Source: an uncultured Candidatus Saccharibacteria bacterium (GTDB lineage: Bacteria > Patescibacteriota > Minisyncoccia > Phycocordibacterales > G965230995). Taken from it: a stretch of 44,073 bases of DNA. The translations under genes were made by a program, and so were the position numbers. The notes under the pieces were generated by a model. The model was not told where the DNA came from, did no database searches, and saw only the letters and a program-made list of their open reading frames with translations. The stretch covers positions 1 to 44,073 of the forward strand of contig OZ246398.1 of assembly GCA_965230995.1 (NCBI GenBank), in the 5' to 3' direction. The stretch's first letter is position 1. Each line of letters opens with the position of its first letter. This document shows positions 4,711-44,073 of the stretch, piece by piece.

Positions 4711-5850
4711 TTAATTAGATTCGGACACAAATTCATTTTCTATTTGTACATTAATCAAATTATTGATTTCTGTTAATGATACATTTGTATCGGATTCGCT
4801 TATTGACTTAGTAAATGGATCCAAAATTTTAACGTAGCCACTTCCTGTTATATTAACCAATAAGAAATTACCTTTTGATATCGGGACGATATTTGTCTTC
4901 CATCTTCCAACCCCCCTAAAGACAGGTAGATTATCTGCGGTGTAAAAAATCGGAACAGCTTTTTTCGTTCCAGAATTGCTATCAGAATTTACATCTGACA
5001 TCCATCCCTCTTTAGAATCGAAATAATAGGCAATATCGCCAAATTTAGCATCCACATCGATCATTCGTTCTCCGGTCCTTTTACTTATTATGATTTTATC
5101 ATCGTAATAAGGTCCAAAATTACTAATAGTGATCACATCTCCTTTTTCACTTAGATTCCATGTCTTTGGATAAAAAAACTTAAAGCCAAAGTTTGCATCG
5201 GCATAAGTTTTCCAATTAGCCACCATCTGTTCTTTTACCTCAAAAAATTTAAAAGTAGAAATAATTTTATCTGTTGTTATTTTCCTCATATCAAAATCCT
5301 CATCAGCGAGTGTATTTGGATAAATTCCTGAATATTGCCAAAATGCATCAATAAAGATTACATTTGAATCATCCTTTTGGATATAATAATACCCACTACT
5401 TCCACCTCCTATTTCAAATTCTTTTTTTAATGCATCAAGTCCACCGACTGTGGTTTTAGTAAAACCCTCCTCTCTTGAAAAGTCATTTACATTTCCATTA
5501 AAGTGACATATGTGTAAATAAATATTTTCATTTTCAATGATTTTTACAGATTTTTCGTCGTTTACTTTTTTATCTTTAATCCACTGATAACAATCATTTT
5601 TCCCAACACTGAAGGATTTTGGATATTTTACCTCATAACCAATCAAATCGTTTCTGTATGTTTTCCAGTTAACAATATCTTTTTCTAGATTTTCAATATT
5701 AATTGTTTGAGAAAATTTATCTACCTCTCCCCGTTGTGATATATTAAAATACTGATAAACCCAAGAGCCACACCCGACTAATATCGCAAGAACAATAATC
5801 ACACTCATCGCAATGGGTGTAGATATAGTACGGTTCAAATTTTTAAACAT
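4711..5850 (-). CDS. Membrane-anchored protein with two PsbP-like NWKTY domains
   Basis: N-terminal TM; repeated NWKTYxxxxxGY/FxxxYPK motifs. Start moved from 5901 to the in-frame ATG at 5850 (uncertain). Confidence 0.65.
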   Translation of the reverse strand: MFKNLNRTISTPIAMSVIIVLAILVGCGSWVYQYFNISQRGEVDKFSQTINIENLEKDIVNWKTYRNDLIGYEVKYPKSFSVGKNDCYQWIKDKKVNDEKSVKIIENENIYLHICHFNGNVNDFSREEGFTKTTVGGLDALKKEFEIGGGSSGYYYIQKDDSNVIFIDAFWQYSGIYPNTLADEDFDMRKITTDKIISTFKFFEVKEQMVANWKTYADANFGFKFFYPKTWNLSEKGDVITISNFGPYYDDKIIISKRTGERMIDVDAKFGDIAYYFDSKEGWMSDVNSDSNSGTKKAVPIFYTADNLPVFRGVGRWKTNIVPISKGNFLLVNITGSGYVKILDPFTKSISESDTNVSLTEINNLINVQIENEFVSESN

Positions 5851-5912
5851 ACGAATTAGATTAACTTTAATTTTAAGTTTGTTAATAATATCATATATCA
5901 TTAAAAAATAAC

Positions 5913-6254
5913 CTATCCTCCTTGTTCACTTCGTTCACAGCAGAAGAGATTCGGTCACAACTCTTCTGCTTCGATAAATCTACGCAACGAAGGTCGCGAC
6001 CCCGTCTCATGGGCAAGCCTCGCAAGCTCGCTTGTATACCGGCTCCGACTTTCGAATCTCCCATCCTCTCGCAATGGTAAATTGCTCAAACACTTCGTGT
6101 TTTTGCAAACCATTGCAATAGAGATTCGATCCTTACAGGATCACAGTACCCCGATTGGATAATTACTTCGTCCTAAACGGACTCGTAATTATACACAATC
6201 GGGCTTCGAATCTCCCACGAAAGCCTCCCAGGCTTTCTATCCTCCTTGTTCACT
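5913..6254. repeat. Hairpin-rich tRNA-adjacent element flanked by an 18-bp direct repeat
   Basis: CTATCCTCCTTGTTCACT at 5913-5930 and 6237-6254; inverted copies of the tRNA-Ser 3' arm at 6051-6068 and 6205-6217; several nested stem-loops. Confidence 0.8.
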
Positions 6255-6255
6255 G

Positions 6256-6342
6256 CGGAGGATGGGAGATTCGAACTCCCGAGACCGTTTCCGGCCTGCA
6301 TCCTTTCCAAGGATGTGCACTAGGCCACTATGCGAACCCTCC
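6256..6342 (-). tRNA. tRNA-Ser(GGA)
   Basis: GGAGGGT/ATCCTCC acceptor, G discriminator, CATCC-TTGGAAA-GGATG anticodon arm, long variable arm, GGGAG-TTCGAAT-CTCCC T-arm; CCA not encoded. Confidence 0.97.
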
Positions 6343-6355
6343 ATTGATAATATAG

Positions 6356-6796
6356 CTACATTGATTTACCCTGCTTTAAGCGTCTCGATTGTTCAAATCC
6401 GTAAAAAACAGTGAACTTATTAGCAACCCATCCCAAATAGTCATAAATGATACGATACTCAGCGTCTCCTTCTGTTGTGCCTCTCTTGTCACCTACCTTT
6501 GTAAGTAATTCGGCTTGGATTTTCTTAAAAAAATCGAAATGTCTTTGCGATAATTCTTGTGGTGGTACTCTCATAAACGAAAATAACAATGCGTGTCCTT
6601 CATCAATGAAATTAATATTAGACACATCTTTGGAATCACCAAAATGGTTAGTTTTTCCAGTAACGGTTTCTATTTTTCTTTCTTCTAAAAATATCTCTCT
6701 GACTTCTTCGACTGGCACCTTAGGGAGATTCAGCTCTCGAATTTGATCCTCTAGAGAACTTTTTACAATCTGTGATGCGTGTTCTGGTGTTGACAT
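6356..6796 (-). CDS. Hypothetical protein
   Basis: 146-aa ORF filling the gap between htpX and tRNA-Ser; no recognised motif. Confidence 0.7.
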   Translation of the reverse strand: MSTPEHASQIVKSSLEDQIRELNLPKVPVEEVREIFLEERKIETVTGKTNHFGDSKDVSNINFIDEGHALLFSFMRVPPQELSQRHFDFFKKIQAELLTKVGDKRGTTEGDAEYRIIYDYLGWVANKFTVFYGFEQSRRLKQGKSM

Positions 6797-38944: not shown

Positions 38945-39018
38945 TGGCTGCCAGACTTGGACTCGAACCAAGATAGACGCCTCCAGAGGGCGCCGTCCTA
39001 CCATTAGACGATCTGGCA
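38945..39018 (-). tRNA. tRNA-Gln(CTG)
   Basis: TGCCAGA/TCTGGCA acceptor, G discriminator, encoded CCA, GCGCC-CTCTGGA-GGCGT anticodon arm, CTTGG-TTCGAGT-CCAAG T-arm. Confidence 0.97.
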
Positions 39019-44032: not shown

Positions 44033-44055
44033 TGGAGCCACCTCGCAGAATCGAA
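44033..44055 (-). other. Isolated tRNA 3'-end fragment (tRNA-Thr-like), possible att scar
   Basis: Minus strand TTCGATT-CTGCG-AGGTGGC-T-CCA, but the preceding bases (TAAGT) cannot pair to form the T-stem. Confidence 0.45.
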
Positions 44056-44073
44056 ACTTACAGTTTCAGTACC

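Follow-up and report, generated by a model that had tools for sequence, protein, structure and literature searches.

Two stacked tRNA-end cassettes form the trailer of a tRNA-Ser(GGA) gene and belong to a protein-less repeat family associated with tRNA 3' ends

Results

The tRNA-Ser(GGA) trailer is an array of two cassettes

The approximately 340 bases located 3' of tRNA-Ser(GGA) in the window (the whole stretch of 44,073 nucleotides that was analysed) consist of a small non-coding repeat, rich in hairpins, in two copies stacked on each other. We call such repeats "tRNA-end cassettes", and the interval 5913-6254 is an array of two of them with different cores, where the original prediction had seen a single element. 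Cassettes measure about 110-160 nt, are non-coding and combine a conserved core of several hairpins, which comes in at least two types, with two arms that copy the 3' end of the resident tRNA: one antisense, 5' of the core (about 20 nt, from the T-loop to nucleotide 73/74), the other sense, 3' of it. The parts follow each other in the order trailer hairpin, anti-acceptor, hairpin H1, anti-T arm, core and sense copy of the tRNA 3' end. In intact cassettes the two arms pair and close the unit, the closing helix mimicking the acceptor/T-stem stack of a tRNA and H1 branching off where the tRNA body would sit. Literature searches retrieved no description of such cassettes in CPR bacteria. The parts of the Ser locus are, 5' to 3' along the minus strand:

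6256..6342, minus strand: tRNA-Ser(GGA), detected by ARAGORN (6255-6342) and by the Rfam tRNA model with Infernal (48.2 bits)
6237..6254, minus strand: post-tRNA flank with copy 2 of the 18-mer, reading AGTGAACAA-GGAGGAT-AG
6220..6236, minus strand: hairpin H1, AAAGCCU-GGG-AGGCUUU, which folds and is of a type present at other tRNAs
6205..6217, minus strand: antisense arm 1 (anti-T), TGGGAGATTCGAA, a perfect complement of tRNA nucleotides 54-66
6126..6209, minus strand: type-1 core, matched by covariance model R1 (82.3 bits, E about 1e-17), this core being one of the 10 sequences used in building R1; covariation; fold z-score -6.1
6121..6129, minus strand: truncated sense copy 1, TCGAAUCUC, tRNA nucleotides 55-63, 9 nt left
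6069..6120, minus strand: hairpin X, UUGCAAUGGU...ACCAUUGCGA, from inverted repeat and fold
6051..6068, minus strand: antisense arm 2, GAGGAUGGGAGAUUCGAA, contiguous anti-acceptor and anti-T, a perfect 18-nt complement of tRNA nucleotides 54-71
5954..6050, minus strand: type-2 core, AGUCGGAGCC...GGGGUCGCGACC...GUUGUGACC, with copies at other tRNAs and in other genomes
5931..5953, minus strand: decayed sense copy 2, (C)GAAUCUC then UUCUGCUGUGAACGA, pairing with GCAGAAGAG of the type-2 core
5913..5930, minus strand: flank and anti-acceptor repeat (copy 1 of the 18-mer), a partial next unit that ends the array
4711..5901, minus strand: downstream ORF, lipoprotein-like, with lipobox LVGC; gene callers start it at 5850

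Every sequence element described in the original prediction was recovered where it had been placed. The 18-mer CTATCCTCCTTGTTCACT occurs exactly twice in the window (5913-5930 and 6237-6254), a situation found in 0/100 shuffles, and this direct repeat lengthens to 21 nt at 95% identity. The 3' part of tRNA-Ser (6258-6275) has a perfect 18-nt reverse complement at 6051-6068, which lengthens to 31 nt at 81%, and a second antisense copy of the tRNA 3' end, at 6205-6217, is perfect over 13 nt. The 18-mer pair and both antisense copies are thus exact and beyond chance expectation. Similarly, TTCGAATCTCCCA gave 3 matches against 0.08 expected and GAGATTCG gave 5 against 1.16 expected, those at 5946-5953 and 6121-6128 having the same orientation as tRNA-Ser. 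The trailer hairpins were confirmed by inverted-repeat search and folding, and the G+C content of the trailer is about 50% compared to about 30% in its flanks.

None of the antisense pieces stands alone: each makes up the 5' arm of a cassette whose usual 3' end is a sense copy, and the two GAGATTCG motifs correspond to the sense copies, both truncated at this locus. Behind the tRNA, which does not encode CCA and whose nucleotide 74 is C at 6255, the anti-acceptor GGAGGAT (6239-6245) is the reverse complement of the acceptor 3' strand ATCCTCC; it fits this strand and not the acceptor 5' strand, which would give GGAGGGT. It should be noted that the layout of the family predicts an anti-acceptor at the position 6237..6254 of the Ser locus. 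H1 is the conserved branch that separates anti-acceptor and anti-T arm in type-1 cassettes. The type-1 core begins about 46 nt past the end of tRNA-Ser, on the same strand, and is composed of a long hairpin (CCCGAUUG...CAAUCGGG, interrupted by the internal loop GAGU/ACGAA), a linker GGUACUG and a small hairpin with the loop UGUAA; it is 84-86% identical to independent copies. Sense copy 1 pairs with antisense arm 1 and so closes cassette 1. Hairpin X then takes the place that the trailer hairpin has at other loci, after a tRNA-end copy and before the next antisense arm. The type-2 core has copies in the same genome behind tRNA-Glu(CTC), Leu(TAG), Tyr, Lys(CTT) and Thr(TGT); its helix GGUCGCGA/UUGUGACC is conserved, with the G.U pairs on the minus strand, which is the tRNA-sense strand.

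Both 5' arms of the Ser locus are perfect (13/13 and 18/18) and the anti-acceptor GGAGGAT matches at 7/8 positions. By contrast, a full sense copy, from the T-loop to nucleotide 73/74, is lacking: intact members of the family carry the tRNA 3' end as a perfect direct repeat of 18-21 nt, whereas 7-9 nt are kept here, the second copy being reduced to 7 nt (5946-5952). The locus is a truncated member of the family, and the truncation of both sense copies beside perfect antisense arms points to an older, partly decayed array. No ORF was found inside the Ser cassettes.

The nature of the 18-bp repeat bears on whether the trailer derives from a classical DNA transposon (MITE, REP or REPIN) whose transposase lies elsewhere and whose target-site duplication would be this repeat. 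The family is indeed repeated within the genome, short, intergenic, hairpin-forming and non-coding, as REP/REPIN and MITE families are, and a direct repeat bounds the interval. However, this repeat is made of the post-tRNA flank and the anti-acceptor GGAGGAT and belongs to a partial next unit, not to a transposon-type duplication. Comparable flank repeats exist at tRNA-Thr(TGT) of the same genome and at the tRNA-Cys of genome L026, and at other loci what is repeated is the tRNA end itself (18-21 nt). The GGAGG within 5913..5930 resembles a ribosome-binding site, yet it lies 17 nt before the ATG at 5901.

To our reading of the assemblies, the Ser stretch is not an artefact of one of them, since both its edges were matched with 0 mismatches in two independent short-read assemblies (Logan SRR14271366 and SRR14271374). 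These assemblies stop within the repeated cores, at 6165 and 5980. The original prediction had named an assembly artefact as a possible undoing; this is answered at the edges, and the middle (5981-6164) is confirmed by the complete genome only.

A scan for RNA families with permissive thresholds (Rfam; Ser locus and 13 other loci) returned only tRNA and tmRNA, with no ribozyme, intron, RtT or riboswitch match. A hidden tmRNA, RNase P RNA or plus-strand tRNA was considered for the TTCGAATCTCCC pieces and rejected, the T-stem partner being missing and ARAGORN and Rfam being negative. A hammerhead-like nature of the three-way junction was likewise discarded by inspection, the conserved segments being in the wrong order.

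Cassettes lie behind most tRNA genes of the genome

The association of cassettes with the 3' ends of tRNA and tmRNA genes is near-absolute. The idea that the trailer is part of a repeat family tied to tRNA genes was borne out in the 743-kb source genome, where R1 detected 17 type-1 cores, 17/17 of them directly 3' of a tRNA or tmRNA gene, and where the trailer sub-modules recur genome-wide, always 3' of tRNA genes and with a constant relative orientation. The key test of the original prediction, namely the presence in each trailer of antisense sequence specific to its own tRNA, was positive at about 20 of the 36 tRNAs, each with 10-18 nt in its trailer that are antisense to its own T-loop and T-stem; such trailers also exist in other genomes of the order. 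In total, about 25/36 tRNAs carry cassettes and about a third are without any. As to trailers similar to that of tRNA-Ser, its sub-modules were retrieved behind other tRNAs and in related genomes, whereas a genome-wide search found no second copy of hairpin X anywhere in the genome.

The genome set comprised 41 genomes of the same order, with no other member of the family of the source genome, and it offered no true empty allele of the Ser locus. Exact-protein look-ups led only to short-read contigs that end inside cores, and the one metagenome relative found for the upstream gene (46% identity) has no tRNA at that place. Type-1 cores are present in 25 of them, at 0-25 copies per genome over the set, and none was found outside the order. 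Among the 110 R1 matches in these 25 genomes, 86 have a tRNA or tmRNA on the same strand within 400 nt upstream (median distance, 72 nt); in two genomes, some cores lie away from any tRNA in the DNA examined.

Elements that target tRNA genes by means of a tyrosine integrase, and their cargo-less cis-mobilisable remnants, share with the cassettes the insertion point in the T-loop, the duplicated tRNA 3' end, the intact tRNA gene and the ability to accumulate as arrays at one tRNA. The T-loop is reportedly a classical sublocation for integrases. Accordingly, cassettes might be attL/attR scars left by prophages or genomic islands, the direct repeat of the tRNA 3' end starting in the T-loop and the tRNA being regenerated. 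We regard this as barely credible: cassettes contain neither integrase nor cargo, measure about 150 nt, affect about 25/36 tRNAs of a 743-kb genome, have a core that is a conserved fold with compensatory changes, and possess an additional antisense att copy, which is not a trait of att scars. Furthermore, one core family serves many tRNAs, while there is one tyrosine recombinase per genome.

The arms match the resident tRNA

The arms were compared with their own tRNA and with permuted tRNAs. Anti-T stems have on average 1.31 mismatches out of 5 with their own tRNA against 2.54 +/- 0.10 with permuted ones, and sense copies 4.69 out of 13 against 7.91 +/- 0.20. The match varies between cassettes: the anti-acceptor is perfect (8/8) in 40/85, the anti-T stems are imperfect in 47/85 and the acceptor part of the sense copy is absent in 37/85. 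A negative association between perfect antisense and perfect sense copies, seen in a small sample, disappeared with 85 cassettes (p = 0.27).

The arms match the 3' strand of the tRNA, its discriminator and nucleotide 74. In the cases made informative by a G.U pair in the T-stem, perfect arms are the reverse complement of the 3' strand (5/5), and the possibility that the anti-T arm is a sense copy of the T-stem 5' strand was discarded, all informative perfect cases following the 3'-strand reverse complement. CCA is absent from the copies where the gene is without CCA, which rules out the mature tRNA as template. Complementarity of the anti-acceptor runs on into the trailer of the tRNA itself (mean 3.95 nt; full 8 nt in 11/40) and is not continued into the flank past the sense copy (mean 1.78 nt).

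Another possibility is RNA-mediated (retro) mobility, in which a cassette transcript, or a terminated pre-tRNA whose 3' end primes itself within the trailer hairpin, would be reverse-transcribed, thereby writing the antisense arm, and the cDNA would recombine at the tRNA gene. The start of the antisense arm coincides exactly with the point from which a snap-back primer in the trailer hairpin would copy, and its end lies at the T-loop; the folded strand is the RNA-sense strand (see below), and the source genome (G000) carries one reverse transcriptase gene (425594-426217). On the other hand, reverse transcriptase (RVT_1) does not correlate with the cores, being encoded by 11/25 core-bearing and 4/16 core-free genomes, and three core-rich genomes (G013, G017 and G025) have none. 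The CCA-less copies exclude a mature tRNA template, and Rfam gave no group II intron or retron match. We consider retro mobility improbable.

The core fold is conserved on the tRNA-sense strand

Selection acts on the fold of the core, and it is the tRNA-sense strand that adopts it. In the core alignment, 98.3% of the cells are paired and compensatory changes affect 12/16 pairs, which 0/500 shuffles equal. G.U pairs outnumber A.C pairs (40 vs 4), and the sense strand is more stable than the antisense strand in 32/34 core copies. The conserved unpaired nucleotides of the core are GGUACUG and UGUAA.

Cores cluster by genome (51 label changes vs 78.3 +/- 2.4 when shuffled) and far more weakly by tRNA type (55 vs 60.3 +/- 2.0). 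This clustering and the patchy distribution over the 41 genomes speak for spread and turnover of the cassettes, as do several loci: tRNA-Ile(TAT) is followed by perfect tandem copies, some insertions are nested, sense copies are either perfect or absent, and the tRNA-Cys/tRNA-Leu junction exists in filled and empty states in different genomes. Finally, conservation of the tRNA-Ser(GCT) trailer loop extends over four families, implying that it has long resided at this one tRNA.

No cassette-encoded or cassette-associated protein was found

Neither the cassettes themselves nor their immediate surroundings encode a protein that goes with them: clustering of the neighbouring ORFs at 30 loci yielded no recurrent real protein, just frames through the repeats. 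As for enzymes that could act from elsewhere, Y1 transposase (PF01797) gave 0 matches in the source genome and in 6 other core-bearing genomes. Overall, it is found in 26/41 genomes of the order, 18/25 core-bearing and 8/16 core-free, a difference that is not significant. The tyrosine recombinase (PF00589) is present as one Xer-like gene in the source genome (180354-180866) and as one gene in almost every related genome.

These data complete the case regarding a transposon derivative. Y1 transposases do occur in the order. Nevertheless, the source genome harbours 17 cores without any Y1, the ends of the cassettes are variable, the terminal arms changing with the resident tRNA, their association with tRNA 3' ends is of a strictness foreign to REP/REPIN and MITE, and neither RAYT nor Y1 is in the genome. 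Since the arms vary from tRNA to tRNA and no Y1 transposase is present, the cassettes are not a classical MITE or REP, a MITE/REP-like family having been one of the options in the original prediction, and descent from a DNA transposon of this kind is very improbable.

Discussion

The oddity of the cassettes lies in the combination of a conserved fold, tRNA-specific arms and no protein of their own. In otherwise pared-down genomes of 0.6-1 Mb, they follow as many as two thirds of all tRNA genes. The reading that we favour, with about as much doubt as conviction, is that they are selfish, protein-less repeats of RtT type, co-transcribed with the tRNA, by a mechanism that we infer. They may persist and spread within a genome through host replication and recombination alone. 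Two features would assist such a spread: the T-loop sequence common to all tRNAs (GGTTCGA, nearly palindromic), which forms both core-arm junctions, and the direct repeats of the tRNA end, which could give rise to tandem and stacked arrays. The antisense arm would be written, or corrected, from the adjacent tRNA by fold-back templating across the trailer hairpin. This last step is a proposal, and simple copying does not explain why H1 splits the antisense arm exactly at the acceptor/T-stem junction.

The closest known relatives in layout are the RtT (RttR) repeats of the tyrT-tyrV locus of E. coli K-12 (RF00391), which we examined directly. To our knowledge, these repeats were described around 1980 and their function has never been explained. 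As in the cassettes, the units lie directly 3' of the tRNA in the same orientation, each comprising an antisense piece of the tRNA 3' end (GGGGAAGGAT), a structured core of about 95 nt and a sense copy (AATCCTTCCCCCACCACCA); they are repeated in tandem, the array ending in a partial unit, and they are non-coding apart from a tiny ORF. A mobilome signal at tyrT-rttR is described in a preprint (10.1101/2024.07.17.603846). The two have no similarity in sequence or by covariance model, RF00391 giving no match in the region 5700-6500 (E <= 10) or in 13 further cassette loci (E <= 1). RtT resides at one tRNA locus and its antisense piece spans the T-stem region only, whereas CPR cassettes follow the majority of tRNA species as well as tmRNA, their arms being rewritten in every case, and possess the anti-acceptor, H1 and at least two interchangeable cores. 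Given the common layout, RtT would be the only representative of a far larger class that is open to experiment, and the question becomes testable in a model organism.

A further parallel, by analogy, is offered by the integron attC sites and the attP hairpin of phage CTX used by XerCD, in which a folded single strand rebuilds a duplex chromosomal site from two inverted segments. The cassettes may resemble these sites in their strand-specific fold and in their arrays of units behind a fixed site; they differ in that there is no IntI and in that the stems copy each tRNA instead of a constant R/L box. If the cassettes are mobile, they show how DNA can target tRNA genes, and change from one to another, with no need of integrase or transposase. 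A bolder version, which we think unlikely, is that the cassettes and E. coli RtT form a new class of protein-less, self-addressing element. Its rewritable address, the last third of the tRNA gene on both strands, would be borne by a conserved RNA or single-strand fold and re-templated, by fold-back copying across the trailer hairpin, from any tRNA next to which a unit arrives. Once folded, the address would guide host recombination or replication enzymes to the T-loop of that tRNA, the unit thus moving with no enzyme of its own, or else form a tRNA-specific clamp that settles what becomes of read-through precursors.

Several observations do not sit easily with the selfish reading. Clustering of the cores by genome could also reflect gene conversion between functional units that are old and of vertical descent; the strong structural selection, the conserved unpaired GGUACUG and UGUAA and the tRNA-like closing helix fit a host function too; anti-T stems are often imperfect (47/85) and some cores stand away from tRNAs in two genomes; and the tRNA-Ser(GCT) trailer has been resident for long, in four families. 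An alternative is that cassettes are host cis-acting RNA, i.e. functional parts of the tRNA transcription unit, which we judge possible though doubtful. In one version, the antisense arms would clamp the tRNA 3' half in read-through transcripts, and this clamp would act in quality control, offer RNase III a substrate or time maturation. In another version, RNase P and RNase Z could cut at the closing helix that mimics the acceptor/T-stem, freeing the tRNA from the downstream mRNA in the manner of tRNA-like punctuation.

In support of such a role, the fold is formed on the transcribed strand, with strong covariation and invariant loop sequences, intact cassettes fold as an acceptor-like stem, H1 and a T-like stem, and the anti-acceptor has as its partner the end and trailer of the tRNA itself rather than the sense copy. 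According to Bosl and Kersten (1991), also cited in a more recent preprint, the rtT RNA of E. coli is reportedly a processed transcript. At the Ser locus, no terminator was predicted between the tRNA and the downstream ORF. When tRNA and trailer were folded jointly, the model reached -183.6 kcal/mol with the tRNA 3' end paired with 6051-6068, compared to -38.2 kcal/mol for the tRNA and -130.5 kcal/mol for the trailer folded apart. The misfold that would break the cloverleaf, put forward in the original prediction, is thus thermodynamically possible, being favoured by about 15 kcal/mol in these predictions, and a read-through Ser precursor could clamp the 3' half of its tRNA. A functional cassette would amount to a new layer of control over tRNA maturation in CPR/Patescibacteria. 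Against this role, the cores are missing from 16/41 genomes of the order and about a third of the source-genome tRNAs have no cassette; the copy number varies from 0 to 25, with tandem, stacked, truncated and nested copies; both Ser sense copies are broken; and the cores group by genome, not by tRNA. More uniformity would be expected of an essential processing signal.

Cassettes also have practical consequences for genome analysis. They break short-read assemblies at tRNA loci, and the partial tRNA copies that they contain can pass for the att sites of integrated elements.

The tRNA-Ser(GGA) trailer is an array of two cassettes

The window covers the first 44 kb of the source genome, which is complete on a single contig (742,714 bp, 37% G+C), and the genes neighbouring tRNA-Ser(GGA) all lie on the minus strand, like the tRNA itself. 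All the features observed in the original prediction were found again: an 18-mer that occurs only twice in the window (5913-5930 and 6237-6254), perfect antisense copies of the 3' end of tRNA-Ser of 18 nt (6051-6068) and 13 nt (6205-6217), and GAGATTCG at 5946 and 6121 in the orientation of the tRNA, within a G+C-rich interval consisting almost entirely of hairpins. Both edges of this interval were matched without mismatch in two independent short-read assemblies, which stop within the repeats of the locus, at 6165 and 5980. The parts of the locus are as follows.

Feature list of the tRNA-Ser(GGA) locus
6342-6256, minus: tRNA-Ser(GGA)
6254-6237, minus: flank AGTGAACAA and anti-acceptor GGAGGAT
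6236-6220, minus: hairpin H1
6217-6205, minus: antisense arm 1
6209-6126, minus: type-1 core
6129-6121, minus: truncated sense copy TCGAATCTC
6120-6069, minus: hairpin X, unique
6068-6051, minus: antisense arm 2, with anti-acceptor and anti-T contiguous
6050-5954, minus: type-2 core
5953-5931, minus: decayed sense copy
5930-5913, minus: flank and anti-acceptor, second copy
5901, minus: ATG of the next ORF

Two cassettes, hairpin-rich non-coding units behind a tRNA gene, are stacked at this locus: the antisense copies are their 5' arms, and the GAGATTCG motifs are remnants of their sense copies. The direct repeat of 18 bp is no target duplication; it is the post-tRNA flank with its anti-acceptor, and it comes back at the array end as an incomplete further unit. 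Arrays at tRNA-Thr(TGT) in the source genome and at a tRNA-Cys in another genome end in a similar partial unit. With the sequence GGAGGAT, the Ser anti-acceptor is the reverse-complemented 3' strand of the acceptor stem; the 5' strand would read GGAGGGT. It is therefore truly antisense. The Ser locus is an older, partly decayed array of two cassettes of an RtT-like, order-wide family.

The layout recurs behind tRNA genes of the order

Parts of the Ser interval, compared with the whole genome, recur always directly 3' of a tRNA gene and in the same relative orientation, as expected from the proposal of a tRNA-linked repeat family. Comparison of the trailers of all 36 tRNAs of the source genome, in tRNA orientation, yielded a common layout. 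The tRNA is followed by trailer hairpin B, in many cases a terminator, and then by an anti-acceptor that is the reverse complement of the tRNA's final 8-9 nt. Next come hairpin H1 and an anti-T arm that reverse-complements the T-loop and the 3' strand of the T-stem. A conserved core leads on to the last part, in which the tRNA 3' end is repeated in sense from the T-loop as far as nucleotide 73/74. The predicted tRNA-specific antisense was borne out, as about 20 of the 36 tRNAs have their own T-arm exactly antisense-copied over 10-18 nt in their own trailer, and antisense matches to the trailers of other tRNAs are much shorter. At least two core types exist: in type 1 the linker GGUACUG joins a long hairpin to a small UGUAA hairpin, and type 2 has the form AGNCGGAGC...GGGGUCGCG...GUGACC.

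R1, a covariance model built for the type-1 core, has 17 matches in the source genome, each behind a tRNA or tmRNA. Copies occur in 25 of 41 genomes of the order, all of different families, and numbers per genome range from 0 to 25. Among 301 genomes sampled evenly from the phylum, only two were matched, the source genome and a second member of its order; the type-1 core is therefore order-restricted, within the sensitivity of the search. A same-strand tRNA or tmRNA lies at most 400 nt upstream of 86 of 110 R1 matches (median gap 72 nt). In two genomes, some copies occur in other contexts with a different 5' part. At loci L076-L082 (genome G017) and L071-L072 (genome G013), some of the type-1 cores are without a tRNA in the surrounding 300 nt; their 5' part differs but is conserved (GGTTGAAAAGCGAATACTTGGAGCTT), they lack a tRNA-like 3' end, and some follow protein genes, e.g. 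groEL. At L079 the type-1 core is antisense to a nearby tRNA.

Regarding other loci of the source genome (contig C1 of G000), a type-1 core lies behind the tmRNA (85538-85921) at G000:C1:85999-86084; it therefore seems that any T-arm/acceptor end of tRNA-like form can be the target, and not tRNAs alone. The window stops (44051-44073) within another type-1 cassette, in a stretch reaching to ~44410. Behind tRNA-Thr(CGT) (44335-44410), in a stretch that is partly N in the sequence, tandem units each close with GATTCTGCGAGGTGGCTCCA, with CCA present as in the gene. The other tRNA of the window, tRNA-Gln(CTG) (38945-39018), whose gene encodes CCA, has neither a cassette nor an antisense copy in its trailer. 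The trailer of tRNA-Phe (G000:C1:390582-390640) has no core but does have a terminator, an anti-acceptor of 9 nt (TGTCAGGAC) and a hairpin resembling H1, and could be the layout in a core-less state. The type-1 cassettes of tRNA-Val(TAC) and tRNA-Arg(CCT) (G000:C1 ~238640-238800 and 387430-387750) share an insert of ~45 nt (gcgacattgtttgatttatca.acaagaagtactcttgtggt) inside the long hairpin, and cassettes are therefore mosaic themselves.

The arms copy the resident tRNA

Across 85 cassettes, with permuted tRNAs as control, the anti-T arm shows 1.31 mismatches to its own tRNA at the five tRNA-specific bases, against 2.54 +/- 0.10, and the sense copy 4.69 of 13, against 7.91 +/- 0.20. A perfect anti-acceptor occurs in 40/85 cassettes, and where the T-stem holds a G.U pair, perfect arms copy its 3' strand (5/5 cases). 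The sense copy has a bimodal acceptor part (35/85 perfect, 37/85 essentially absent), which suggests loss by discrete truncation and not by gradual decay. Where the gene has no CCA, its copies have none either, which makes the gene or its primary transcript the template and rules out mature tRNA. Complementarity of the anti-acceptor extends beyond the discriminator into the trailer of its own tRNA by 3.95 nt on average (the full 8 nt in 11/40), and shows no such extension into the flank past the sense copy (mean 1.78 nt); tRNA end, trailer hairpin and anti-acceptor together therefore make up a single long palindrome that is nearly perfect.

The core is a selected, strand-specific fold

Among 34 distinct copies of the type-1 core, 98.3% of model-helix cells are paired and 12/16 pairs show compensatory change, values approached by none of 500 shuffles and by none of the slid controls. 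G.U pairs outnumber A.C (40 vs 4), 27-30 of the G.U pairs being at one terminal position, and the tRNA-sense strand out-folds its complement in 32/34 copies. The type-2 core has a single consensus helix with G.U pairs likewise on the tRNA-sense strand. The fold of the core is under selection and specific to one strand. In intact cassettes, an acceptor-like stem, H1 and a T-like stem are arranged around a three-way junction (z = -8.5, -7.9; -6.1 for the Ser type-1 cassette). From tRNA-Ser to the next ORF, terminator and promoter predictions were both empty, and the cassettes are therefore probably co-transcribed with the tRNA.

GCGAAGC, an unusually stable DNA mini-hairpin, or C-GAA-G hairpins recur in trailer hairpins and cores, e.g. 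at tRNA-Arg(CCT) of the source genome and at loci L011, L028 and L030. This motif leaves open that the folded molecule is single-stranded DNA instead of RNA.

The cassettes resemble E. coli RtT repeats

In E. coli K-12, the RtT units behind tyrT and tyrV comprise an antisense piece (GGGGAAGGAT), a core and a sense copy AATCCTTCCCCCACCACCA, and are tandem with a partial final unit in the sequence examined. The layout is identical to that of the cassettes, but these give no match to the Rfam RtT model: they are RtT-like in working and outside the RtT sequence family. Our literature search found such cassettes described nowhere in CPR bacteria, and an order-wide RtT-like family is apparently undescribed so far. 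An exonuclease-resistant DNA signal over tyrT-rttR is reported to rise under stress (2024 preprint, 10.1101/2024.07.17.603846), which is a lead and not evidence.

Selfish spread and host function

An integrase att scar, a MITE/REP element and a retroelement each have at least one defining feature that the cassettes lack. The original prediction is partly supported: it stands for the tRNA-linked family and its tRNA-specific antisense, and the classical MITE reading and a target-duplication reading of the 18-mer fall. No enzyme is associated with the cassettes: no ORF recurs next to them, no Y1 (IS200/RAYT) transposase occurs in the source genome or in six other core-bearing genomes, reverse transcriptase is uncorrelated with the cores and missing from core-rich genomes, and almost every genome has only one tyrosine recombinase. 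The sole reverse-transcriptase and tyrosine-recombinase genes of the source genome lie at G000:C1:425594-426217 and 180354-180866, respectively.

Because no enzyme accompanies them, we favour the cassettes being a protein-less repeat that uses host replication and recombination. We infer that fold-back templating across the trailer hairpin would write the antisense arm, that the conserved, nearly palindromic T-loop sequence would form both core/arm junctions, and that direct repeats of the tRNA end would drive array growth. Counted toward selfish spread are the patchy distribution of cores among genomes of the order, identical tandem units, stacked heterologous cassettes, nested insertions and truncated copies, and a tRNA-Cys/tRNA-Leu junction that is filled in some genomes and empty in others. 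So is the grouping of cores by genome (51 label changes vs 78.3 +/- 2.4 in shuffles), which is far weaker by tRNA type (55 vs 60.3 +/- 2.0); gene conversion among old units could also produce this clustering by genome. Evidence for a function, on the other side, comes from the strong structural selection, the invariant loop nucleotides of the core, the tRNA-like closing helix and a tRNA-Ser(GCT) trailer conserved across four families.

The Ser precursor and the downstream gene

Truncation of both Ser sense copies leaves the perfect antisense arms with no intact partner within their own cassettes. In the minimum-energy fold of tRNA-Ser with its trailer, the 3' half of the tRNA pairs with arm 2 (-183.6 kcal/mol, against a sum of -168.7 kcal/mol for the two folded apart); formation of this predicted misfold in the cell would depend on co-transcriptional folding and the speed of 3'-end processing.

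The anti-acceptor of serine tRNAs reads as a Shine-Dalgarno-like GGAGG because the acceptor 3' strand is CCUCC-like. This motif lies in 5913-5930 and 6237-6254 of the Ser locus, and at L019 (tRNA-Ser(GCT) of genome G040) the same flank motif AGTGAACGAAGTGAAC and GGAGGAG stand at proper ribosome-binding-site spacing to an ATG. Judging from these sequences, the tRNA tail could mask the ribosome-binding site of the next gene in an unprocessed transcript. The ORF after the Ser cassettes (4711-5901, minus) probably starts at Met18 (5850), as in the Logan gene call; this start gives its product, for which no Pfam family is on record, a signal peptide and a lipobox LVGC.

Directly behind tRNA-Met (G000:C1 46544-46618) lies an ORF with a LAGLIDADG-type motif, LGFFAADG (~46350-46540), and a similar ORF fills the tRNA-Lys/tRNA-Leu gap at locus L022; homing-endonuclease-like genes thus also occur at tRNA 3' ends in the order.
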